64,000 nucleotides of DNA from Candidatus Altarchaeum sp. (GCA_018260615.1 JAGWDQ010000044.1:13791-77790); one strand, 5' to 3'; shown: positions 86 to 15,023, counted from the first letter of the stretch. A program made the numbers and translations. The notes: a model not told the origin generated them from the letters alone.

Positions 86-1303
86 ATGCAGCATAAGTAT
101 AAAAGGGTCTTGCAGGAGGAAAATCCGGAATTGTATGATGCAATTATGAAAGAGCGTGAAAACAGGGAAAATTTACTTTCGTTATTCGCAACAAAAAACA
201 GTGACGGAATAAGAAGGGAGGAAAAATTTACAGAAGACATTCGGACAAAATTTTCAAGGGATGCGGACAGAATCATCCATTCAAAAGCATACAGCAGATA
301 TATTGACAAAACACAAGTATTCTTTCTTGTTGATAATGACCACATAACACACAGGGTCTTGCATGTCCAGCTCGTATCAAAGATCGCCCGCACAATCGGA
401 AGGTCTTTACGGCTGAATGAGGACTTAATTGAGGCGATTGCCATGGGTCATGACATCGGACATCCGCCTTTCGGGCATCTGGGGGAAGAAATTTTGTCGG
501 GTTTATGCAAAGAGTATAAGATTGGAAGATTTTTACATAATGTTGAAGGGGTGAAATTTTTAGATGATATTGAAAACTGTAATTTAACCTTGCAGGTTCT
601 TGACGGAATTCTGTGTCATAACGGCGAAATTTTTGAAAGGAGTTTAAGACCTGACAGAAACAAGAACTGGGAAATTTTTGATAAAGAAGCAGGGGAAATT
701 TTAAAAGGCAGAATAAATTATGCACCTGTGACGCTTGAAGGGTGCGTAGTGAGAATGGCTGATATTATTGCCTATCTCGGAAGGGATATTCAGGATGCAA
801 TCGGAATCGGATTAATAAACAGAGACGATTTAAATTTAATATCCGGTGAATGCACGGGAAAAATCGGTACTGAAAACGCCGACATAATTAATAACCTCAT
901 AATTGACATAATTGAGAACAGTTTTGATAAAGAAGACGAAATTTCTTATTCGGGGGAAATTTATGAGTGCCTGAAAAAATATAAAAATTTTAACTATGAG
1001 AAAATTTATAATAATCCGAAGCGGCTGGGAGAGAAAAGCAAGGTTGAGAGCATGTATGCAACATTATTTGGGAAATTTTTAAATGACTTAGAGCATGAAA
1101 ATAAGGACTCTAAAATTTATAATCATTTTGTTGAAATGAACGGAATAAACAGGGAATATGTTAAGGAATCTTCTTATGCAGAAATTGTCAGGGATTATAT
1201 TGCGGGAATGACCGACAGATATTTTGAAGAGATGTTTAAGGATGTTGTGTTACCAAAAAGAGTAAAGACATTTAAGGAAGAAAGGAAAAAAGAAGATATT
1301 TAA
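86..1303 (+). CDS. dGTP triphosphohydrolase-like HD-domain phosphohydrolase
   Basis: HD motif 'HRVLHVQLV...AMGHDIGHPPFGHLGE', 'RDADRIIHSKAYSR' typical of Dgt family; 405 aa. Confidence 0.8.
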   Translation: MQHKYKRVLQEENPELYDAIMKERENRENLLSLFATKNSDGIRREEKFTEDIRTKFSRDADRIIHSKAYSRYIDKTQVFFLVDNDHITHRVLHVQLVSKIARTIGRSLRLNEDLIEAIAMGHDIGHPPFGHLGEEILSGLCKEYKIGRFLHNVEGVKFLDDIENCNLTLQVLDGILCHNGEIFERSLRPDRNKNWEIFDKEAGEILKGRINYAPVTLEGCVVRMADIIAYLGRDIQDAIGIGLINRDDLNLISGECTGKIGTENADIINNLIIDIIENSFDKEDEISYSGEIYECLKKYKNFNYEKIYNNPKRLGEKSKVESMYATLFGKFLNDLEHENKDSKIYNHFVEMNGINREYVKESSYAEIVRDYIAGMTDRYFEEMFKDVVLPKRVKTFKEERKKEDI

Positions 1304-1373
1304 TGGGTAAGGTAAATTTAAATCATTTAACTATTAAACTAAATGGCTCTTATTTTAATTTTTACTGATTTCA

Positions 1374-1560
1374 GAACTTGCTTCTGAAATCTTTGAATGA
1401 AAAGAGGTGTGAAATCTTTGAATGAAAAGAGGTGATTTTAAAATTCCAAAAATTTTAAAATCTCCGAACAAAGAGAGGTTATTTTAAAAACACAAAGTTT
1501 TGAAAATCTCCGAGCGAAGCGATGTGATAAAATTTTGGAAAAATCTGAAAAATCCTGAAA
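1374..1560. repeat. Intergenic repeat element (TTTTGAAAATC-hairpin family) incl. 24-bp tandem 'gaaatctttgaatgaaaagaggtg' x2 (1386-1434)
   Basis: Modules 'ttttgaaaatctccgagcgaagcg' shared with copies at 6750-6990, 37980-38090, 44220-44470, 49783-49870, 60370-60420. Confidence 0.7.
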
Positions 1561-1707
1561 TATTGCAAATTATTCTAATCATCAAAAACGAGTATAAGAA
1601 CAAATAAATTTAATTTTTATTCTTTTCTTATTTTCTTAATTAATCTTATTCTTAATTATATATCAATATTTATAATTTAAATCAATAATTTATTAAAATC
1701 AAATAAA

Positions 1708-2106
1708 ATGACTGACAATCTAACGGCATACATAGGAATTGTTATCATAGCAGTTGTCGGAATTGCTGTTGCCTTGCTTACGATGGAGGTTATATGGAAA
1801 TTTTTAAGAGTTAAAGATAAAGATAAAGACAAAAATTTAAACGCAAATTCCGGGAAATATGATACCTACGAATGCGGAGAAATCGCAGTTGGGAATCCGA
1901 AATTTTCAAATGTGTCTTTTAAGTATTATATTTATGCTTTAATGTTTGTTGTATTTGATATTGAAGCGGTATTTTTATTTCCCTGGGCAGTTGAATTCAC
2001 AAATTTGGGACTTTTGGGATATGCCGAAGCGATGCTGTTTATTGCTTTAATTTTGGTTGCATTAATATATGCTATAAATAAAAATTTCCTTAAATGGACT
2101 GATTAA
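1708..2106 (+). CDS. nuoA: NADH-quinone oxidoreductase subunit A-like (NuoA/FpoA)
   Basis: 3 TM helices, 'YECGE' motif and 'FDIEAVFLFPW' signature of NuoA. Confidence 0.8.
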   Translation: MTDNLTAYIGIVIIAVVGIAVALLTMEVIWKFLRVKDKDKDKNLNANSGKYDTYECGEIAVGNPKFSNVSFKYYIYALMFVVFDIEAVFLFPWAVEFTNLGLLGYAEAMLFIALILVALIYAINKNFLKWTD

Positions 2107-2150
2107 AATTTGAGATTAAATTTAAATCTTTGAGATGGATAAATTAAATG

Positions 2151-2250
2151 TGCTTCAGAACCTTTTTCTTTTAGAAAAAGAAAAAGCATTCAGGAAAAAG
2201 AAAAAAGTAAACCTTGGAAAAATTTAAAAATTTTAGAAAATTTAAAAATT
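2151..2250. repeat. Mini insertion element (hairpin 'TTTTTCTTTTAGAAAAAGAAAA' + 'GCATTCAGGAAAAAGAAAAAAGTAAACCTTGGAAAAATTT') flanked by 22-bp direct duplication of nuoB start
   Basis: 'tttgagatggataaattaaatg' occurs at 2129-2150 and 2251-2272; related element copies at 40352-40429, 41446-41543, 60338-60580. Confidence 0.75.
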
Positions 2251-2255
2251 TTGAG

Positions 2256-2792
2256 ATGGATAAATTAAATGAGGGTAAATTAAATGTTTCATTCGGAAAA
2301 ACAGAAAAGGTCTTTGGATTTGTTGATAAAATTTTGAGCTGGGGACGACTAAACTCCGTATGGCCTTTAACATTCGGATTAGCATGCTGTGCAATAGAAA
2401 TGATGGCAACCGCAGGTGCAAATAATGATATTGCAAGATTTGGAATGGAGGTATTCAGACCATCTCCGAGACAGGCGGATTTAATGTTCGTTGCGGGAAC
2501 AGTAACTCATAAAATGGCTCCGAGAGTTAAGCGGCTTTATGAACAAATGCCTTCTCCGAAATATGTCATTGCTATGGGGGCATGTGCGACAAGCGGAGGT
2601 CCTTTTTTACATTCTTATGCGGTTGTTAAAGGTGTTGATAAAATTATTCCCGTTGATGTTTATGTTCCCGGATGTCCTCCGAAACCGGAGGCATTACTTG
2701 ACGGAATAATAAAATTAAGGGAGAAAATCGCACAGGAAAAACTGCTGACTGAAAATATTAAAGGAATATTGAGTAAGAACAAGAAAAAGTAA
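2256..2792 (+). CDS. nuoB: NADH-quinone oxidoreductase subunit B-like (NuoB), N2 cluster cysteines present
   Basis: '[10 protein letters not shown]', 'GACATSGG', 'VPGCPP' motifs; start placed at ATG inside duplicated target (ORF track start 2214 probably runs into the inserted element). Confidence 0.85.
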
Positions 2793-2828
2793 GAATATAA
2801 GCGAGAAAAGAAAATAAAACAAGAAAAG

Positions 2829-3348
2829 ATGAAAGAAATCCAAAAAACAGAACCTGAAGGATACGAACAACTGCTCAATGATATAAGATCCATTCTGCAG
2901 AGGAATCTCACTAAAGCATATAAAGCAGTAGATAATATTAGAGTACAAACATACTGGCAGATTGGGGAGAGGGTTGTCAGGGAGGAAATAAACCGGAAGA
3001 GGGCGGGCTATGGAGAGGAAGTCATTAAGAGATTGGCAATTGACCTGAAGATTAATGAAAGAACGTTGTATAGGATTCTAAGGTTCTACAATACATATCC
3101 GATTTTGACAACAGTATTGTCAGAATTGACATGGTCACATTACCTGGTGCTAACGAATGTCAATGACAATAACCAGAGGAAAACTTATCGTATGCAAGAG
3201 TCATGATAAGGTTGATGTTTATTACAGTGCGGGAAAAGATAGAGATGATATTTTCGTTACAGAATACAAAACAAAGTTACCAAGTGAACAGGAAATAGAA
3301 TCTATATTAAAGAAACAAAGTAATATATCAGAAAGTGAAGATATATAA
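2829..3348 (+). pseudogene. Remnant of DUF1016/YhcG-like (PDDEXK-family) gene: N-terminal domain ORF (2829-3206) and short C-terminal tail ORF (3157-3348) in different frames, nuclease core missing
   Basis: N-terminal 'LLNDIRSILQRNLTKAYKAVDNIRVQTYWQIGERVVREE...GYGEEVIKRLAIDL' resembles DUF1016 N-domain; second ORF ends 'EYKTKLPSEQEIESILKK' like DUF1016 C-terminus. Confidence 0.5.
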
Positions 3349-7019: not shown

Positions 7020-8477
7020 TTAAATTAAAAGCAAATATCTCAATGGCAACTTGATAAATTTGTCATCAATTAATTCAAGTTCGTCATTACCTATACTTAT
7101 TCCGTAAGAAAAATTTTTTATCTTTTTAGATGTCTCTTTTATCTGCTTTATTCCATAGTCCTCTTTGTTAAAACCAATTTCAATAACGAGCTCTTTATCA
7201 TCATTCCTTAAAATAAAATCAGCACCTTTTTCCGAAGAATCATACATAAATTCCATCCTCCTGCATAATTTTTTAAAGTCCTTAATAAATACCAGTCCGC
7301 AGTAATCTTCAAGTATTTTGCCTTTTATCTCCGGAGGATATCTCCCTTGTAACAGAGATGACCGCAGCGATGGTGAAATGAATAAATATTTTACCGGCTT
7401 TCTCGCTTTTGCATAAGCACCGCCATAACTTCTGATTTTTATTATAATTCCGGCCATAACCAAAACATCTAACAATGAAGTTAATGTCTTATTGTCAATA
7501 TTTAAGGACTTGCCCAATTTTTCATAACTTATTACATCTGATTTTGCTAAAAGATAGAGCAAATTATATATCTTTTGTATTGTTTCCGAATTGAATTTTT
7601 TAAGTGTTATAATGTCTTTTGTGATTAACTTTTCAATCACATTTTGTATTAATTTATAACATCTTTCCTTATTTGTTGTCTTTATTACAAATGGAAATCC
7701 TCCGATATCCAAAAAATCATACTCAATTTTAGGTGGCAAATTGGCAAATAAACGATTCACTTCCAATGAAATGGACATAACGGACTCATACATTTGTCTT
7801 GCGTTTTCACTTTCCAATAGACATCTTAATAATGTATCTGAAAGATCCGGGACTGGAAATTTTATGTTTTTCAATTTCAGATATTCAGTAAATTTAAGCG
7901 GATAAATTTCTTCTGTACTTGCCCTTCTTGAAAGGTCCGGATTCATATTAAGACATAAAGCAGAAGACCCTGTTGCGAGTATTAAAACATTTCTGTGTCC
8001 CATTGTTCTGTCAAAAATCGTCTTTAAGAAAAGCCCCCATTGTTCATCATAGTGAACTTCATCAAGCAAAATTAAAATTTTTTTGTTCAGATTCTCAAAC
8101 TTAAATCTTTTTAGATCTTCATAAAAACGAAAGAACTCATTTAAAGTAATTCCTTCCAAATGTAATTCGCTTACATCAAGATAAATTTTTTCATATTCCT
8201 GAGTAAATATTTTCTGATTACCTGCAAATTTCTGAGCATAAAAAATTTGTGCAAAAAGCGTTGTTTTTCCAACACCTCTAATTCCAGACAAAAGATTGAT
8301 TTTTTCAAGTTCATCAGTTTGATTATTCAAAAATTTTTCCAAAAGCACTTCGTAATGAGAAAAAATATGTCTGGTTGGTAATAAATTGTTGTTTTCATCA
8401 TAAATGTATGCTGACAGAAAATTATCAAGTCCTTCTGTCCATAGCCGGTAAAAATTTTCTATTTTTGTATTCTCCAT
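7020..8477 (-). CDS. AAA+ ATPase of the archaeal COG1373-like family (AAA_14 + C-terminal DUF4143-like)
   Basis: Walker A 'GVGKTTL', Walker B 'LLDEVHYDEQW', 485 aa; typical orphan archaeal ATPase. Confidence 0.6.
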   Translation of the reverse strand: MENTKIENFYRLWTEGLDNFLSAYIYDENNNLLPTRHIFSHYEVLLEKFLNNQTDELEKINLLSGIRGVGKTTLFAQIFYAQKFAGNQKIFTQEYEKIYLDVSELHLEGITLNEFFRFYEDLKRFKFENLNKKILILLDEVHYDEQWGLFLKTIFDRTMGHRNVLILATGSSALCLNMNPDLSRRASTEEIYPLKFTEYLKLKNIKFPVPDLSDTLLRCLLESENARQMYESVMSISLEVNRLFANLPPKIEYDFLDIGGFPFVIKTTNKERCYKLIQNVIEKLITKDIITLKKFNSETIQKIYNLLYLLAKSDVISYEKLGKSLNIDNKTLTSLLDVLVMAGIIIKIRSYGGAYAKARKPVKYLFISPSLRSSLLQGRYPPEIKGKILEDYCGLVFIKDFKKLCRRMEFMYDSSEKGADFILRNDDKELVIEIGFNKEDYGIKQIKETSKKIKNFSYGISIGNDELELIDDKFIKLPLRYLLLI

Positions 8478-8536
8478 TTTGTATGTTTTGATTTATAAAA
8501 TCAATTTATAGAATTAGAATTAGATTAAAATATGCA

Positions 8537-8630
8537 TTTTATTGGGAATAGAATCCCATTAAAACACCATTTTTATTGGGAATAGAATCCCATTAAAACA
8601 GGAGTTTTATTAGGAATGGACTCCCATTAA
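8537..8630. repeat. Three adjacent direct repeats (~34 bp, 'TTTTATTGGGAATAGAATCCCATTAAAACA') immediately upstream of the minus-strand ATPase gene start
   Basis: Copies at 8537-8566, 8570-8600, 8605-8630 (third degenerate); no spacers, so not CRISPR; contains GGGA..TCCC mini-stem. Confidence 0.6.
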
Positions 8631-8649
8631 CCCAAATTTCCCATATGTC

Positions 8650-9918
8650 TTATATATTTATCTCCTCAATCCTCAAAAATTTTTGCTCACCGCTCTCCAT
8701 ATCCCTCAAAGTAACCTTGTTTTCCTCAACCTCTTTCTTTCCGACAACAACAACATACCTGTATTTGTTATTTGCATACTCCATCGCCTTTCTGACTTTT
8801 CTGTTCATTATATCCAAATCCGCTATAATATTTCTTTCCCTTAGTTCTTTTACTACTTTAACACAATAGCCCTTAAATTCCTCACTGACGAATGTAATTA
8901 AAATTTTCCTGTTTTCAAATTTAGGGCTCAAATTTTGCATCTTCAGCGCCTCAATCACTCTGTCAAACCCGTAGGCAAACCCGACTGCCGGAGTGTTTTT
9001 GCTTTTATTATCCTGAACTCCTTTATCTTCCGAAAACAATCCGATAAGATTATCATATCTCCCCCCGCCGCAAATCTGCATATTATTCGCGTGAATCTCA
9101 AATACCGTTGAAGTATAGTAATCCAGTCCGCGAACAGTGTTAAAATTTATAACATAATCAACACCATATAATTCCGCAAATTTTAAAACATTTTCCAGTT
9201 CGTCAATTCCTTCAATCGCTTCCCCGCAGTCATTCAGTAAATTTTTTAAATCGCTTAAATTTTCCCTGTTTCCCTTAAATGAAAGAACTTTGTTTAAAAT
9301 TTCTCCCCTGTCAGTCCTTTTTAAAATTTCATTAACTCCTTCATCATTATGCTTGTCAATATAGTGCAAAATTTTTTTCTTGTCTTCCTCTCTTAAATTT
9401 GCCGAATTCAGAACCCCCTTAATTACCTTTATATTACTGAGCTCCAGAACAAAATTTAAATTTAAGGACTTTAAGCCCTCATAAGCCAGAGAAATAACTT
9501 CCGCATCGCTTTCCGGATTATTACTTCCGATCAATTCAACCCCCAGATGCCAGAATTCCCTGTATCTCGCATGCTGCGGCTCATCATATCTAAATACGGG
9601 ACAAAAATAGTAAAATTTCAAAGGAAAGGCAAAATTTTTAAAATTTTCAGTGAAAAAACGAGCGGTTGAAGCGGTCTGCTCCGGTTTCAGGCATACCTCT
9701 CTGTTTCCTTTATCCTTAAATACAAACATACTTTCAGTGATTTCCTCTCCTGATTTTAATGTGAATATATTTGTGTATTCAACCGTCGGGGTTAAAATTT
9801 CGTCAAATCCGTATAATTTAAATTTTTTTTCTACTGCTTCTCTCACATAGTTCCTTATTTTCATATCATCGGGCAAAAAATCCCGGAAACCCCTTAATTT
9901 TTCTGTTTTGATGTCCAT
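8650..9918 (-). CDS. hisS: Histidine--tRNA ligase
   Basis: Class II aaRS motifs, 'FRYDEPQHARYREF' and 'GGGRYDNL' HisRS signatures; 422 aa. Confidence 0.85.
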   Translation of the reverse strand: MDIKTEKLRGFRDFLPDDMKIRNYVREAVEKKFKLYGFDEILTPTVEYTNIFTLKSGEEITESMFVFKDKGNREVCLKPEQTASTARFFTENFKNFAFPLKFYYFCPVFRYDEPQHARYREFWHLGVELIGSNNPESDAEVISLAYEGLKSLNLNFVLELSNIKVIKGVLNSANLREEDKKKILHYIDKHNDEGVNEILKRTDRGEILNKVLSFKGNRENLSDLKNLLNDCGEAIEGIDELENVLKFAELYGVDYVINFNTVRGLDYYTSTVFEIHANNMQICGGGRYDNLIGLFSEDKGVQDNKSKNTPAVGFAYGFDRVIEALKMQNLSPKFENRKILITFVSEEFKGYCVKVVKELRERNIIADLDIMNRKVRKAMEYANNKYRYVVVVGKKEVEENKVTLRDMESGEQKFLRIEEINI

Positions 9919-10068
9919 ATTTTTTAATTTCTCTTTTTAATTTACTCTGACTGAAAAATTTTTACAAGTATTGTTACACAATTATGAGCAAAAATAAAAG
10001 AATGAAAATTTAACTATTCAGGCGGTAATAAAATTCATCACAATTACGTTCACATCGTTCAAGGGCAA

Positions 10069-10164
10069 ATAATAATTATACAAAAACATATAATATTAAT
10101 TATACATAATTGTATTATACAAAAACGACAAATAATAATTATACAAAAACATATAATATTAATT
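10069..10164. repeat. Direct repeat 'AAATAATAATTATACAAAAACATATAATATTAATT' x2 separated by ~26 bp
   Basis: Exact 35-bp copies at 10069-10103 and 10130-10164. Confidence 0.6.
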
Positions 10165-10227
10165 GCGCATAAGGTAAAAATGAAAAATCCATTTGTATTC
10201 GGGGTAGAGGTTTGTTAAATTTCTAAA

Positions 10228-10283
10228 ATGGAAACACTGCTTCCAAAACCAAAAACGCGGGGAAAAATTTCCGTTGAAGAAAG
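10228..10283 (+). other. Diverged duplicate of the first ~55 bp (start codon onward) of the nitroreductase gene at 12309
   Basis: 'atggaaacactgcttccaaaaccaaaaacgcggggaaaaatttccgttgaagaaag' vs 12309 'atggaaatcacaacacttccggaaccaaaaacaaaaggaaaaatttcgtttgaagaag' (~80% identity). Confidence 0.7.
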
Positions 10284-10379
10284 TAAATGAGTATTTTTCC
10301 TGAATTTTTAACATTATTCTTTTAAACTAAATAATTTCCTAATTTACTAATATAAAATTTATTTATCAATATAGTAAAA

Positions 10380-11654
10380 ATGCAAATCAAAGAAATAAAA
10401 ATAGAAAACTTTAAAGGAATATCTTATTTGAAGTTTTCTCCAAAAAAAATAAACTTAATTGTAGGAAGGAACAATACTGGCAAAACCAGCGTTTTGGAAG
10501 CAATTGATTTGTTATTTAATCCTGAAAATATAGTGCAAATGTATGGTGAACATCTTTCGGATATAATTCATACAGAGACCGAATATTCAGAACTTGTAGC
10601 GAAGATAGGTAAAAGCAAAAAGAAATTAAGGATATCAAAATCATACAAAAGCGAAGTGATTTACCAATTCAAGAAAGACGTTACTGGGGCATTTATTAGG
10701 TCATTAAACAAATTTTTTGCTCTTATTAACCTTCCTGAAAACATCATAGATACAGAAGAAATCAGACACAAATTAGAAAACAAAATGGATGAAGCAATAA
10801 CTCCTGAGATAATAGGCATCATATCAAAAAAGAGTGTGTGTCTCTTAAAAGACAGCGAAGATAAAACAGTAAGGTATCACTTGCCATTTTCAGAATATTC
10901 TCGAATTTCTCGCATTTTACTTCCTGTGTCGCTCGAGATTTTCGAACAAATATCTAAACAGGGTACAAAGTCGTTGAATGAAAAGGTTTTGTCATATGAC
11001 GAGGTTTTGTCAGTTATAAATGCCAATATGTTTGAGATGTTCTCACTTTTTGAACATCCCACAAAAATTTCGGGAGGGAAAAATGTAGTTTTAATAAAAG
11101 ATTTATCTGGTGTGAAATTTGAACTGGAAGAAAAAGACGCAGAAATGAAAAGGAAAATTAGGAATATAGAATCCATTATAAAAGAGCATAATTTGATTGA
11201 AAATTTAGAAAGATTGGATTTTGACTATGTTACATTTAAAGATAAAAATGAAAAATTAAGTTTTGTTCCATTTTCTTTTTTAGGTGATGGTTTTAAAGTA
11301 ATGGTTGGCTTGCTGTGGCATATTTCCTCACCAAATATGGAGAATAAAATTGTCCTGCTTGATGAGCCGGAAACCCACATGCATCCTGGTTATATTCTGG
11401 AATTAATAAAGTTCCTTATCAAATTTTCAGATAAACTAAACATCCGGTTTTTCATAACGACTCATAGCTGGGACTTTCTTGATTTGTTGCTTGACAAGGA
11501 TAATTTTTCACAAGAAGATCAAAAATATTTGGAAAAGGACTTATTGTTGTTAAGAATGGATAAATTAGATGATTCTACTATTCCGACCATTTCGGACTAT
11601 AAAGATGCCAAATATGCAAAGGACAAGCTTTTCCTGGATTTAAGAGGAATTTAA
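10380..11654 (+). CDS. ABC/AAA-type ATPase of the OLD / AriA (PARIS) / AAA_15-21 family
   Basis: N-terminus 'IKEIKIENFKGISYLKFSPKKINLIVGRNNTGKTSVLEAI' (Walker A), 'LLDEPETHMHPGYI' (Walker B/D-loop), 'FFITTHSWDFLDLL' (H-loop); 424 aa. Confidence 0.75.
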   Translation: MQIKEIKIENFKGISYLKFSPKKINLIVGRNNTGKTSVLEAIDLLFNPENIVQMYGEHLSDIIHTETEYSELVAKIGKSKKKLRISKSYKSEVIYQFKKDVTGAFIRSLNKFFALINLPENIIDTEEIRHKLENKMDEAITPEIIGIISKKSVCLLKDSEDKTVRYHLPFSEYSRISRILLPVSLEIFEQISKQGTKSLNEKVLSYDEVLSVINANMFEMFSLFEHPTKISGGKNVVLIKDLSGVKFELEEKDAEMKRKIRNIESIIKEHNLIENLERLDFDYVTFKDKNEKLSFVPFSFLGDGFKVMVGLLWHISSPNMENKIVLLDEPETHMHPGYILELIKFLIKFSDKLNIRFFITTHSWDFLDLLLDKDNFSQEDQKYLEKDLLLLRMDKLDDSTIPTISDYKDAKYAKDKLFLDLRGI

Positions 11655-11656
11655 AA

Positions 11657-12307
11657 ATGAAGAGGATAATCATTTGTGAAGGAAAACATGATAGTATTTT
11701 CTTACGCGCACTATTTCCCAAAATTGGCATTCCTGATAAAGATATAGAAATATTTGATCAGGGGGAGCGTGATAAAAAGGAAGATTTGAGAAATATAGAA
11801 ACAAAAATAGTCGGTAAATTTCTCAGCCCTTACGGACCTTACAGTTCTTGTAAAATTTTGGTAAAGTCAGAAGAGGGAAAGGGTAACGCGATTCATCTGT
11901 TTGCAGAATATTTAACAACATGGATACAAAACTTTGAAACATTTTTGATGCTGGACTTAGATACTTCTCTTTATAAACAAAACAAGTCGGGTAAAAGCAG
12001 GGAGAAAAAAACAAGAATTGAAAGAATGTTAAATAAATTAAAAGAGATGATAAAAAACAAACATGGAAATTTTGAAATAGAGTGTGAAGATATAAAAGAT
12101 AGTGAATTGTTGGTAAGAAAATGTTATCTAAAAGATAAAAACGGCAACCAACGAGTAGGAAGCCCATTTTATCTAATTTTGTTTGTTCATTCGTTAGAAG
12201 AAGAAGCTAACAGGACAGTCCCCTCTGATAATGTTGATATTGAAGGTAAAATATCCAAACTTGTTGAACTGCCCGATATTCAAGACACATTTTCGTCATT
12301 ATTTTAA
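11657..12307 (+). CDS. Small TOPRIM-like protein (DUF4435/OLD-TOPRIM-like) translationally coupled to the ATPase
   Basis: 'IIICEGKHDSIFL' (E-G-x-x-D Toprim-type motif), later 'FLMLDLDTS' (DxD-like); starts 3 bp after ATPase stop; 216 aa. Confidence 0.5.
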   Translation: MKRIIICEGKHDSIFLRALFPKIGIPDKDIEIFDQGERDKKEDLRNIETKIVGKFLSPYGPYSSCKILVKSEEGKGNAIHLFAEYLTTWIQNFETFLMLDLDTSLYKQNKSGKSREKKTRIERMLNKLKEMIKNKHGNFEIECEDIKDSELLVRKCYLKDKNGNQRVGSPFYLILFVHSLEEEANRTVPSDNVDIEGKISKLVELPDIQDTFSSLF

Positions 12308-12308
12308 A

Positions 12309-12881
12309 ATGGAAATCACAACACTTCCGGAACCAAAAACAAAAGGAAAAATTTCGTTTGAAGAAGCAATATTTAAAAGGAAGTCGCACAGGAAATTTAC
12401 GGCTGAAAATTTAAGCACGGATGAAATTTCACAGTTATTATGGGCTGCTTACGGAAGGAACAAAGACCGCAAAGTTGTCCCGTCGGCAGGGGCAACATAT
12501 CCCTTTGAAATTTATATAAATTTAAGCGATGGAATCTATAAGTATGAAAGTGACAGGCATAAAATTTTAAAGGTTGTTGAGGGAAACAAAAGTGAATTAT
12601 TATATTATGCGGCATTACATCAAGAGTGCGTAAAAAATGCGAAAGCAACAATTATTCTCGCTGTCAATTACGAAAAAATTAAGGTAAGATACGGAGACAG
12701 AAGCATTAGATATACACACTTTGAGGCAGGTCATATTGCCCAGAATATTTGTCTGCAGGCGGAAGCATTAAATTTGGGAAGTGTATGTATCGGTGCGTTT
12801 GATGAAGAAAAGGTTGCGAAAATAATAAATTTAGATGAAAATTTAAAAGCAATTTACATGATTTGTGTGAGTAAAATTTAA
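12309..12881 (+). CDS. Nitroreductase-family protein (start set at ATG 12309; ORF track 12231 extension unlikely)
   Basis: 'FKRKSHRKFTAE', 'LLWAAYG' nitroreductase fold signatures. Confidence 0.7.
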   Translation: MEITTLPEPKTKGKISFEEAIFKRKSHRKFTAENLSTDEISQLLWAAYGRNKDRKVVPSAGATYPFEIYINLSDGIYKYESDRHKILKVVEGNKSELLYYAALHQECVKNAKATIILAVNYEKIKVRYGDRSIRYTHFEAGHIAQNICLQAEALNLGSVCIGAFDEEKVAKIINLDENLKAIYMICVSKI

Positions 12882-12902
12882 TTTGACATTTACTATTTAC
12901 TT

Positions 12903-13103
12903 TCACTCCTCTTCATCAAAAATAAATAATTCATCAATTTTAGAGTTAAGTGCTTTCGCTATGTCATACGCAAGTTTAAGTGAAGGGTTGTATTTTCCCT
13001 TTTCAAGAAAGACAATGGTCTCTCTTCTGACACTAACTTTTTTTGCTAATTCTTCTTGTGTCAAATTGTATCTTGCCCGAAATTCTTTGAGTCGTGTTTT
13101 CAT
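12903..13103 (-). CDS. XRE-family helix-turn-helix transcriptional regulator
   Basis: '[48 protein letters not shown]' classic HTH_3; 66 aa. Confidence 0.85.
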
Positions 13104-13150
13104 TCTTTAAACTTTCAAACTGAAATTATTGTAATTAATTCAAACTAATT

Positions 13151-14335
13151 TTATGCAAACAACTCGCTATTCACCAAAATATCTGGTTTTTCGCCTTTTG
13201 GAACTTTCACTTCCAAACCTAAAATTACATAGGATTCTTTATTTGTTTTTCCTTTCCAACCCGTTTCAAATTCATCCTCTTTCAAAGTATCTACTCCAAA
13301 TTTACCTTGCTCCATAAAGTATTTCTGCCTTATATCAAGGATGTTGTCACCATATTGCACCCTTTCAAGAGAAAGTTCATATTCTTTATTTTTTTCAACA
13401 TTGAATGTTGCAACAGGTGCCCAGCCAATAATAACTCCGTTGTTAATTTTGACTCTTGTTTTCAGAGATTTTAGTGGTTTTGTATCTATTTTACCCTTTA
13501 CCTGAATCCAGATAATGTATCCGTCATAATCTGGCATTTTCCAAAAACTTGAGTTTATCCGGTAAATTTCTATAGCATCCCATATTTCTGAGTGTGTTGT
13601 TTCCTCTCCAAAAGGTTTATCTTCTGTACCTTTTCCTGTCCCTGCACTATATAATCTGGCTTCGAGGATAAGACCATGAGTTTCCGGAGAAATAAAATCC
13701 TCCTTAAACATCCATGTCTGATTAGTTATATTGTATTGTTCATCACATACTGATGGAGCAGAACATATCTCATGATCTATTGAAACATGTTCCATCATCG
13801 GCGGAAAAATATACTCCTGAATTATGGCTGGTCCGATGAGTATAGTAAATGCCATTAAAATTCCAAGCCCTATTTCAGTCAATGTCAATATCATCTTATC
13901 TGTTTTTTCATCATCTCGTTCATGCAGATAATAAGATACCATGTATATAATGAATCCGGCAGCAAAAGCAACTTCTATAAGAGATGAAAAAATTTGCTCA
14001 TCTATTATATCAAAACCCAATAATGCTATTAAAATCGCTATTGAAGCTACAAGAAATATAAAACCCTTTTTTGATGCTTTTAAAGTGTTTAATTCCGTTC
14101 GCTCATCAATTCTAATTCTTACTTCACCTGTTCTTTTATATTGAATGATTTCGTAAAGAGAATAAAGTGCAATAATAGTTCCCAGTAATATGAGTAATCC
14201 TGAGATTAAGTATTCTGGGGTGGATACAGCGCCTCTAAAATATAACCACATTACCCCACACATAGTAAAAAATATACCTAATATTGCCCATCTGTATGGT
14301 ATTTGAGATTGTTTATTTATTTGTTCGTTTTTCAT
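13151..14335 (-). CDS. Membrane protein, N-terminal 4-5 TM domain plus ~200-aa C-terminal soluble domain; paralog of 14376-15023
   Basis: Shared N-terminal 'QIPY(R)W..LGIFFTMCGVMW' / 'QIPYWGTIIGIIITLWGILW' with neighbour; adjacent to XRE regulator. Confidence 0.5.
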   Translation of the reverse strand: MKNEQINKQSQIPYRWAILGIFFTMCGVMWLYFRGAVSTPEYLISGLLILLGTIIALYSLYEIIQYKRTGEVRIRIDERTELNTLKASKKGFIFLVASIAILIALLGFDIIDEQIFSSLIEVAFAAGFIIYMVSYYLHERDDEKTDKMILTLTEIGLGILMAFTILIGPAIIQEYIFPPMMEHVSIDHEICSAPSVCDEQYNITNQTWMFKEDFISPETHGLILEARLYSAGTGKGTEDKPFGEETTHSEIWDAIEIYRINSSFWKMPDYDGYIIWIQVKGKIDTKPLKSLKTRVKINNGVIIGWAPVATFNVEKNKEYELSLERVQYGDNILDIRQKYFMEQGKFGVDTLKEDEFETGWKGKTNKESYVILGLEVKVPKGEKPDILVNSELFA

Positions 14336-14375
14336 TTTCGTTAAGTTTTGGTATTTATTTTAAATTTTTAAAAAT

Positions 14376-15023
14376 TTATTGTATCTTTACCGCGATCACA
14401 AATATACCTATTCCGACAAGTAAAATAGCCCTTACAAGAGTAACAAACAGAGCATTGTCTATTGCACCAAAAGCCAATAATCCGTTTATAATTGCCAGAG
14501 AAATCATTAAAAAGAAATAGCCCCATTTTGCCGAGTGTGAGATATTTATGTTTATCCGCTCATCTACCCAAACATTCACCTTGCCTGTCTTTTTGTAGTT
14601 ATAAATTTCATGAATAAAATAAATTGTTATCCCTATTCCCATTATTACTATCACAAGTGCGAAATATCCTACATCCGAAAAGAACACCCACAAAATTCCC
14701 CAAAGGGTGATAATTATTCCAATAATTGTCCCCCAATACGGAATTTGTTTATTTATATTTGTTCCTTCATCAAACGATGTTTCTTCTTCATCCTTTCCCT
14801 TTCTATACTTATAATTCTTATAAATAACATAAAGGATAATTGCCCCTCCGAGTGCTACATACGGAATTGGTTCATCCTCTTTTGATATGTTAAAATCAAA
14901 TATCGCGATTAATATTCCGGCACTAATAATAATCACACCAAATATTAATATCTCCAACTCCATTATGCTTCTTTTCTTTTTTGTTTTTTCCGTTGATGTA
15001 TTTTCTTCCTTTTCCATTTTCAC
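14376..15023 (-). CDS. Membrane protein (TM-only paralog of 13151-14335)
   Basis: Hydrophobic helices, conserved 'KQIPYWG' motif, 'ERININIS' similar to 'ERTELNTLKAS' in paralog. Confidence 0.5.
   Translation of the reverse strand: MKMEKEENTSTEKTKKKRSIMELEILIFGVIIISAGILIAIFDFNISKEDEPIPYVALGGAIILYVIYKNYKYRKGKDEEETSFDEGTNINKQIPYWGTIIGIIITLWGILWVFFSDVGYFALVIVIMGIGITIYFIHEIYNYKKTGKVNVWVDERININISHSAKWGYFFLMISLAIINGLLAFGAIDNALFVTLVRAILLVGIGIFVIAVKIQ

Follow-up and report, generated by a model that had tools for sequence, protein, structure and literature searches.

The question raised by this locus is what a pair of closely packed genes does between hisS and a nitroreductase gene of an uncultivated archaeon, and how it came to lie behind a second copy of the start of that nitroreductase gene. 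The locus is part of a 64,000-nucleotide (nt) stretch of Candidatus Altarchaeum sp. (GCA_018260615.1, JAGWDQ010000044.1:13791-77790), here called the window, to which all positions refer unless another locus is named; its genome is that of Candidatus Altarchaeales archaeon HGW-Altarchaeales-2 (HGW-2), whose metagenome-assembled genome (MAG) encodes an ATPase 100% identical to the one in the window. A sequence-only reading of the window had described the pair as a split cassette of an ATPase and a TOPRIM-like protein, related to antiviral systems. The analysis presented here supports such a cassette, and homology suggests an antiviral role for it. We propose, with a probability of roughly 0.72, that the cassette is an accessory mobile two-gene operon, a divergent archaeal member of the predicted family PDC-M38, and most likely a defence system resembling PARIS and AbiL.

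A conserved gene pair at the hisS-nitroreductase junction

The cassette and its immediate surroundings comprise the following features.

9919..10227, no strand: expanded intergenic region between hisS and the nitroreductase gene, 309 nt against ~60-61 nt in the genomes with an empty site
10228..10290, plus strand: copy A, left over from the 5' end of the nitroreductase gene, with homology to about +57 and then a stop codon
10284..10379, plus strand: cassette leader, 96 nt, AT-rich, compared with the MSIBF leader
10380..11654, plus strand: predicted ABC-type ATPase (AAA_15/AAA_21) of 424 amino acids (aa), from Pfam and PADLOC profiles and motifs
11657..12307, plus strand: small TOPRIM-like partner, 216 aa, from conserved residues, family profiles and a structural model
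12309..12367, plus strand: copy B, with which the intact nitroreductase gene begins, from the repeat alignment
12309..12881, plus strand: SagB-type nitroreductase, the target and host gene, 190 aa, from Pfam and NCBIfam

The ATPase gene is separated from the small gene by a 2-nt gap and the small-gene stop from the nitroreductase ATG (12309) by a 1-nt gap, and the small gene is, to all appearance, translationally coupled on both sides. Because the small-gene stop lies 1 nt before its start, the nitroreductase gene is co-oriented and probably co-transcribed with the cassette. Its product has the nitroreductase fold of the SagB type (PF00881, 6e-30; TIGR03605, 112 bits, cutoff 78.4) and stands outside the function of the module.

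The same pair was found elsewhere, with an ATPase of 396-424 aa and, 0-10 nt downstream, a protein of 193-216 aa that has no Pfam domain. Its carriers are Altiarchaeales (loci L001-L008, L026 and L039-L043), an Aenigmarchaeota MAG (L014) and unassigned metagenome contigs (L012, L015 and L029-L034). All genomes compared are MAGs or metagenome contigs. Their AT-rich composition (~31-33% guanine plus cytosine, GC) raises chance similarity, and similarity was therefore judged by shuffle controls. The GC content of the cassette, 0.31-0.32 against a window mean of 0.33, does not set it apart from its surroundings. Most of the pair loci, including that of the window, sit among housekeeping genes (hisS, purH, leuD, rpl2, fibrillarin), and at a few of them a gene for a transposase or a methyltransferase is close by.

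The ATPase

The open reading frame (ORF) at 10380-11654 carries the motifs first noticed in the sequence alone, namely the P-loop GRNNTGKTS (residues 29-37), the Walker B/D-loop LLDEPETHMHP (326-336, with the Walker B DE at 328-329) and the H-loop TTHS (360-363), together with a signature-like LGDGFK (301-306). Among 51 cellular homologues, G29, K35, G302, E329 and H362 are invariant and the signature Asp is kept in 50, and the protein further contains a variable insert (~111-235) and a hypervariable C-terminus of ~70 residues. Pfam assigns it to AAA_15 (2e-25, 90.6 bits, cutoff 32.1) and AAA_21 (1e-24, 88.5 bits, cutoff 27). Against 133 PADLOC families the best match is PDC-M38A (PDLC04608, 1.9e-32), which covers residues 2-422 and profile positions 4-366 of 367, and it is followed by AbiLi (3e-27), AriA (2e-26) and then NsnB, GajA, PtuA and Old. 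These profiles and motifs place the protein among the AAA_15/AAA_21 ABC ATPases of the OLD/AriA/AbiLi/PtuA group, in agreement with the class (OLD/AriA/AAA_15-21) proposed in the sequence-only reading.

An ATPase of this kind could also serve, with a dedicated nuclease, as a RecF/Rad50/SbcC-like component of a housekeeping pair for DNA repair or chromosome maintenance, and weak matches to such families do exist. They are restricted to the N-terminal head, over ~100 residues (recF TIGR00611, 3.5e-13, 49.4 bits, cutoff 172; Rad50, 8.7e-9, 33.9 bits, cutoff 700; SMC_N, 1.7e-8, 34.6 bits, cutoff 40). Because these scores fall far under the curated cutoffs, the ATPase does not appear to be a housekeeping RecF or Rad50, and the SMC and RecF assignments, named in the sequence-only reading as an outcome contrary to its own, are likewise not borne out. 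The distribution of the pair, described below, bears on this alternative as well.

The small TOPRIM-like partner

The ORF at 11657-12307 contains ICEGKHD (residues 6-12) and a later LDLD (99-102), as had been claimed for it. A profile search of 1.84 billion representatives placed it in a family of 249 clusters, every one of them ~200 aa long and matching end to end, and mostly rare environmental singletons. In 115 homologues E8, G9, D12, K70 and D100 are invariant, and L68, E72, G74, D102, L180 and E181 are conserved in at least 90%. Along the protein E8/G9/D12 follow strand 1, K70/E72/G74 follow strand 3 and D100-x-D102 follows strand 4, and S179-L-E181 come after these. In the TOPRIM signature a Glu follows strand 1 and a DxD comes behind a later strand (bioRxiv 10.1101/2025.07.10.664194), and this pattern is present in the family.

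An AlphaFold2 model built from the 115-sequence alignment (predicted local distance difference test 92.4, predicted template modelling score 0.89) contains a parallel alpha/beta core of four strands, whose C-terminal ends carry the invariant residues, and a C-terminal part of a three-stranded antiparallel sheet and three helices. A fold search with the small protein is compatible with an OLD-type TOPRIM and does not single one out, and we take it as supportive of that identity, not as decisive. The family profile aligns both TOPRIM motifs, in order, to 1t6t, a small TOPRIM protein, and 2p62 (PH0156, a DUF3226 structure) in the PDB, at E-values that are not significant.

Family members scanned singly (12 for Pfam; 12 and 115 for PADLOC) gave the following matches.

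PADLOC PDC-M38B: 46 of 115 members, best 6e-10 (also 7 of 12 in the smaller set)
PADLOC RT-Toprim_I-C (retron): 14 of 115 members, best 5e-7
PADLOC mad4: 14 of 115 members, best 6.5e-6
Pfam DUF3226: 10 of 12 members at <=0.1, best 1.2e-5
Pfam OLD-like_TOPRIM: 8 of 12 members at <=0.1, best 0.005

Pfam Toprim was matched by two of the 12, and one family member is labelled by IMG as ribonuclease M5, a TOPRIM nuclease. On the other hand, neither the window protein nor any family member (12 and 115 scanned) matched DUF4435, AriB or AbiLii. The earlier claim of a TOPRIM partner thus stands as far as the conserved E...DxD pattern and the family-level TOPRIM profiles are concerned, and its label as a DUF4435/AriB-like protein falls. 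We consider it quite probable, mainly from the conserved residues and the family-level profile matches, that the small protein belongs to the TOPRIM-like nucleases of the OLD/DUF3226 kind. Its nearest named relatives appear to be the PADLOC candidate PDC-M38B and Pfam DUF3226; a literature search on DUF3226 and PDC-M38 found no papers. Its likeness to PH0156 of Pyrococcus horikoshii (2p62) lies in an N-terminal K-l-I-i-v-E-G-K-x-D-x-x-F and in the DxD after a later strand.

Accessory status and insertion sites

A nitroreductase scan of species-representative genomes found the junction empty in Ca. Altarchaeum sp. GA_1_1 and CG2_30_32_3053 (loci L019 and L020), where the starts of hisS and the nitroreductase gene are ~60 nt apart with nothing between them; in the window the two starts are 2390 nt apart. 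Because these two related Altarchaeum species lack it there, the cassette is accessory, and the comparison with genomes lacking the insert that had been suggested from the sequence bears out the view of it as acquired cargo. In the identity tree of the flanking genes MSIBF (Ca. Altiarchaeum hamiconexum) and GA_1_1 group at 95%, followed by HGW-2 at 90% and CG2_30 at 85%. The cassette is present at hisS/nitroreductase in HGW-2 and MSIBF and missing in GA_1_1, the sister of MSIBF, and CG2_30, which implies that the cassette was either lost cleanly or gained there more than once.

Further insertion sites were found in other Altiarchaeales. In L001-L006 the cassette lies between an NFACT-family gene and purH, and in L039-L041 a divergent cassette stands behind a gene fragment of 62-68 aa encoding a C-terminal DHHA1 part. 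The L039 copy (1024-3176; JGI 3300029890, the metagenome of the window) has an ATPase 47% identical to that of the window and a small protein of 214 aa, with L040 and L041 as related contigs; the upstream neighbours differ between these contigs, one being a DpnII-like gene, and the DHHA1-fragment site may be another insertion hotspot.

The empty junctions and the varied loci contradict universal conservation at a fixed position. A housekeeping pair is difficult to reconcile with a cassette that is missing from the locus in two sister species and placed at different loci elsewhere, and whose family consists mostly of rare environmental singletons. Together with the low RecF, Rad50 and SMC_N scores, this makes a repair or chromosome-maintenance role very improbable.

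The copy in HGW-Altiarchaeales-1 (L007/L016, PHDY01000011.1) was considered as a decayed cassette, its ATPase being truncated and its DLD motif lost. Its sequence is ~100% identical to window positions 8000-14500 except for four deletions of 40-70 nt: one in hisS, two in the ATPase gene (at its start and in its middle) and one in the DLD motif of the small gene. Because one of them, of 40 nt, lies in the essential hisS, they are probably assembly artefacts, and this copy was not used.

Duplication of gene starts and mobility of the cassette

Positions 10227-10281 align to 12308-12365 with about 80% identity and one 3-nt indel. The local score of 48 was reached in 0 of 1000 shuffles (maximum 39), so that the diverged duplication of the nitroreductase 5' end around the pair, reported in the sequence-only reading, is upheld by the alignment and its control. 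Copy A is a 20-codon ORF remnant (10228-10290, METLLPKPKTRGKISVEESK and a stop codon) and stands behind the native upstream sequence of the nitroreductase gene, which within 9919-10227 is still recognisable in the last ~14 nt before 10228 alone.

A comparable arrangement occurs at purH. In L001 and L002 a 266-nt direct repeat of the purH start precedes the cassette, with 94-97% identity and the first ~170 nt identical, and the intact purH begins 22 nt after the small gene. L003-L006 are without the long repeat and have a 48-nt remnant of purH (+231 to +278) directly upstream of the ATPase start (score 39, shuffle maximum 33). The common layout of the nitroreductase and purH sites indicates that the order gene start, cassette, complete gene arose at two genes, and that the upstream copy can be trimmed later.

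No flanking repeat was found at the MSIBF, L012, L014, L015 and L039 cassettes. At the MSIBF nitroreductase site the cassette directly precedes the ATG and has no copy of the gene start in front of it, and its leader is 83% identical to that of the window. An origin of the window leader from the nitroreductase gene, of the kind seen at the purH site, where the leader comes from purH, was rejected, as no similarity signal was found.

The MSIBF nitroreductase gene is itself split at +53 by a 157-nt miniature inverted-repeat transposable element (MITE), and a further copy of this element, with 96% identity, is found at a distance of 2.5 kb. The truncation of the gene at +53 on a short MSIBF contig, considered at one point as the cassette boundary, is this MITE insertion. 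The element (L026 4651-4815 and 7178-7338; CCXY01000083.1, Ca. Altiarchaeum hamiconexum of the MSI biofilm) has imperfect terminal inverted repeats, CAGGTTGTAAG and CTTACATCTTG, and a TTGA duplication.

Flanking repeats of 17-29 nt in L032-L034, which belong to a distant branch, were likewise rejected as target-site duplications. They represent the near-palindromic motif TTAGGGACCCTAA, more likely an operator, which is found upstream of the ATPase gene and upstream of a convergent ORF of 78-113 aa behind the small gene (L032 135-152 and 2351-2368; L033 2686-2702 and 4875-4891; L034 2692-2718 and 4852-4880). It is probably the shared operator of a cassette-linked regulator.

Prophage-style integration with a replacement gene end is known from e14 in icd of E. 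coli. The window resembles this case in that the insert is flanked by a diverged direct repeat of the target-gene end while an intact gene is retained, and differs from it in that the 5' and not the 3' end is duplicated, the insert is ~2 kb without an integrase, and the repeat varies between 57 and 266 nt.

The pair might also be self-mobilising, in that the ATPase and the TOPRIM-like protein would themselves cut and rejoin DNA, insert into gene starts and make the flanking duplications. TOPRIM domains in topoisomerases catalyse DNA breakage and rejoining, the nitroreductase and purH sites share the layout of gene-start fragment, cassette and complete gene, and no integrase or transposase lies within ~10 kb. 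However, the repeat lengths of ~57 and ~266 nt rule out a fixed staggered cut, five of the copies carry no repeat, and no terminal inverted repeats or conserved ends common to different cassette sites were found. In addition, OLD-type TOPRIM proteins are known as nucleases and not as recombinases, and homologous recombination accounts for the pattern with no new activity. Self-mobilisation is therefore very unlikely in our view.

The duplication is best explained, tentatively and at somewhat less than even odds, by single-crossover or homology-facilitated integration of DNA that carries both the cassette and the beginning of the gene next to it. DNA with the cassette and this gene start, arranged as in MSIBF and L003, would first be available; it would then enter a cassette-free relative by a single crossover (Campbell type) or by homology-anchored illegitimate recombination; and the direct repeats left behind would allow scar-free excision, which agrees with the clean empty site of GA_1_1.

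A more ambitious combination would make the cassette an integrase-less minimal mobile unit that carries the start of its target gene, excises without a scar and is placed under the host promoter, promoting its own movement in the boldest version, and would separately make the inactivated viral ATPase described below a decoy. If true, the mobile-unit part would explain the clean empty site in a sister lineage of a cassette-bearing genome. That the combination holds as a whole we consider unlikely.

Joint divergence of the ATPase tail and its partner, and a viral homologue

The window and MSIBF cassettes were compared over window positions 11459-12216, corresponding to L026 3790-4520, and their flanks, and identity follows a mosaic pattern.

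hisS and the ATPase core (10382-11458): DNA identity ~85-90%
ATPase C-terminus (from 11459): DNA identity 60-70%
Most of the small gene (to 12216): DNA identity ~50-60%
Small gene, final 90 nt, and nitroreductase gene: DNA identity 80-90%
ATPase residues 1-355: amino-acid identity ~76-82%
ATPase residues 356-424: amino-acid identity 51%
Small-protein residues 101-185: amino-acid identity 24%

That the ATPase tail and its partner diverge together suggests co-evolution at a contact surface, an exchange of alleles or diversifying selection.

The Ca. Altiarchaeum virus Altivir_2 (MW522971) has been tied to its Ca. Altiarchaeum host by spacers of the clustered regularly interspaced short palindromic repeats (CRISPR) (PMC8324899). 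Altivir_2_MSI encodes a 300-aa homologue of the ATPase (L009 8001-8903, MW522971.1; the same gene is found in L010 and L011), which adjoins a PolB gene and is not accompanied by a gene for the small protein. It most resembles the copy of the MSIBF host, with 65% over the C-terminal half and 59% over the N-terminal head, is without the insert at ~110-235, and keeps the P-loop and the H-loop. Asn stands both at the position of the Walker B catalytic Glu, conserved in 51 of 51 cellular homologues, and at that of the signature Asp, conserved in 50 of 51. From these replacements we infer a candidate dominant-negative anti-defence decoy, that is, a fragment that would bind ATP and the partner and be dead for hydrolysis. 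We know of no dominant-negative ATPase decoy described so far as an anti-defence type for ATPase-TOPRIM systems. The main text of PMC8324899 makes no mention of the ATPase, and IMG/VR gave no match, whether scanned with the alignment of the small protein, with the ATPase or with the viral homologue.

These observations bear on the possibility that the cassette is a selfish addiction module, similar to a toxin-antitoxin (TA) pair, or a parasitic one, with the small nuclease as toxin and the ATPase as antitoxin, kept because its loss harms the host and with no antiviral benefit. Pfam names AAA_21 a 'putative AbiEii toxin, type IV TA system', PARIS itself acts as a TA pair (PMC13064643), and the patchy distribution, the several insertion sites, the tight translational coupling and the lack of a validated defence gene next to the cassette would all suit such a module. 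On the other hand, it is hard to explain why a virus of the host captured and inactivated an ATPase copy unless the module acts on the virus, and the hypervariable ATPase C-terminus and small-protein segment fit antagonistic co-evolution. As TA behaviour and defence can coexist, we regard addiction without defence as an improbable account of the cassette.

Relation to known systems and proposed function

The reading of the cassette as a PDC-M38-like defence operon draws on several partial likenesses. With PDC-M38 it has in common the gene order and similar sizes, the best PADLOC match of its ATPase, and the PDC-M38B matches within its small-protein family. PDC-M38 was defined from RefSeq genomes by embedding in BREX, DISARM or type I restriction-modification loci (bioRxiv 10.1101/2024.01.29.577857, Payne et al.), whereas the window cassette stands alone between housekeeping genes of an uncultivated archaeon. 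PARIS, composed of AriA and the DUF4435 TOPRIM nuclease AriB (PMC11464382), likewise splits an ABC ATPase from a separate TOPRIM-type effector; the window ATPase matches the AriA profile, the first-motif Glu of the small protein is, by analogy, positioned like AriB E26, and viral counter-measures known for PARIS have a candidate counterpart in the Altivir_2 homologue. The window proteins are smaller, with a partner of 216 aa (~25 kDa) against 35 kDa for AriB and an ATPase of 424 aa (~49 kDa) against 55 kDa for AriA, and because the small-protein family has no DUF4435 or AriB match the cassette is not a member of PARIS.

The AbiL system of lactococci (AbiLi and AbiLii, PMC13064643) is similar through the AbiLi match of the ATPase and through AbiLii, which is also small and has been put in the OLD-type TOPRIM group by structure prediction only (PMC13064643). 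AbiL is bacterial and plasmid-borne, the window cassette archaeal, and because no AbiLii match was found the cassette is not an AbiL member. OLD and GajA contain the same two domain types, with weak OLD-like_TOPRIM matches in the small-protein family and matches of the ATPase N-terminus to the Old and GajA profiles. These similarities are weak, the two domains are encoded in the window by different ORFs, parted by a stop codon and 2 nt, and no GajB/UvrD helicase gene lies nearby; as its ATPase and TOPRIM-like domains are unfused, the cassette encodes neither an OLD nor a Gabija protein.

Several points weigh against the proposed reading. The window small protein on its own stays under threshold with DUF3226 (E 0.0018, 18.6 bits against a Pfam gathering score of 27, over the N-terminal 45 residues only), with OLD-like_TOPRIM (E 0.028, 15.4 bits, cutoff 23.2) and with PADLOC mad4 (0.026); no PADLOC profile reaches 1e-3, and the protein has no match to the PDC-M38B profiles at E <=1, a difference from PDC-M38 itself. 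An hhalign comparison of its family with P2 Old found the best placement on the EGK TOPRIM glutamate motif of Old at a probability of 1.7%, which is unusable as evidence. PDC systems are computational predictions, PDC-M38 being one of 145 'guilt-by-embedding' candidates, and HEC-01, a related candidate of ATPase and TOPRIM, gave no protection in an E. coli assay (both bioRxiv 10.1101/2024.01.29.577857). No integrase or transposase was found near the window cassette among the neighbouring genes checked (1 to 24 kb), and the cassette lies outside any recognised island of validated defence systems, its sole neighbour of that sort being the candidate AAA_14/DUF4143 system PDC-S01.

By analogy with PARIS (PMC11464382) and AbiL (PMC13064643), we hypothesize that an oligomer of the ATPase would bind the small nuclease and hold it inactive, probably through the C-terminal ~70 residues of the ATPase. 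The ATPase would sense a viral cue, with the insert at 111-235 and the C-terminal tail as candidates for the sensing or contact part, and an ATP-dependent rearrangement would then release or activate the nuclease. Its putative metal site of E8, D100 and D102, together with K70 and E72, would cut DNA or tRNA and thus stop the multiplication of the virus.

Neighbouring genes and other observations

Within the expanded intergenic region, a 63-bp direct repeat spans 10061-10172, with two exact 35-nt copies (10067-10101 and 10130-10164), and is unique in the window. The repeat region has no Rfam match and no stable fold, and it is possibly a duplication of a promoter or operator. Rfam, tRNA and RNA-fold checks of the cassette region were all negative.

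On the hisS side, the gene behind the PDC-S01 match (7020-8477, minus strand; 485 aa; PADLOC PDC-S01 7.5e-30, a candidate system) adjoins hisS and encodes an AAA_14 and DUF4143 ATPase. Its position varies among Altarchaeum genomes: in L019 it stands beyond the nitroreductase gene, and in L020 it is fragmented. On the nitroreductase side, positions 12903-15023 (minus strand) hold a gene for an Xre-type HTH_3 protein (66 aa) and two genes for multi-pass membrane proteins (of 215 aa and of 394 aa, the latter with a weak DUF1673 match). This block stands between the nitroreductase gene and a CBS/ParBc_2 gene and is absent at that position in L019, L020 and L026, and is thus a second lineage-specific insertion beside the nitroreductase gene.

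Implications for archaeal defence

Antiviral systems of archaea other than CRISPR are almost unexplored, above all in the uncultivated subsurface Altiarchaeota. The module is itself of an expected type, and its value as an entry point comes from the recurrent duplication of gene starts, the hypervariable module and the virus-borne inactivated copy of the ATPase. The compact pair of an ATPase and a ~25-kDa TOPRIM-like protein represents a well-defined family of about 250 clusters, in which the candidate catalytic residues are clear and for which natural presence and absence alleles of the cassette are available for comparison. The duplication at two sites may show how defence cassettes free of an integrase move among close genomes, and the hypervariable module of ATPase tail and partner suggests a site of protein contact or a point of viral action. 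Overall, the cassette and a virus that carries an inactivated copy of its ATPase form a concrete, testable host-virus pair for the candidate family PDC-M38.

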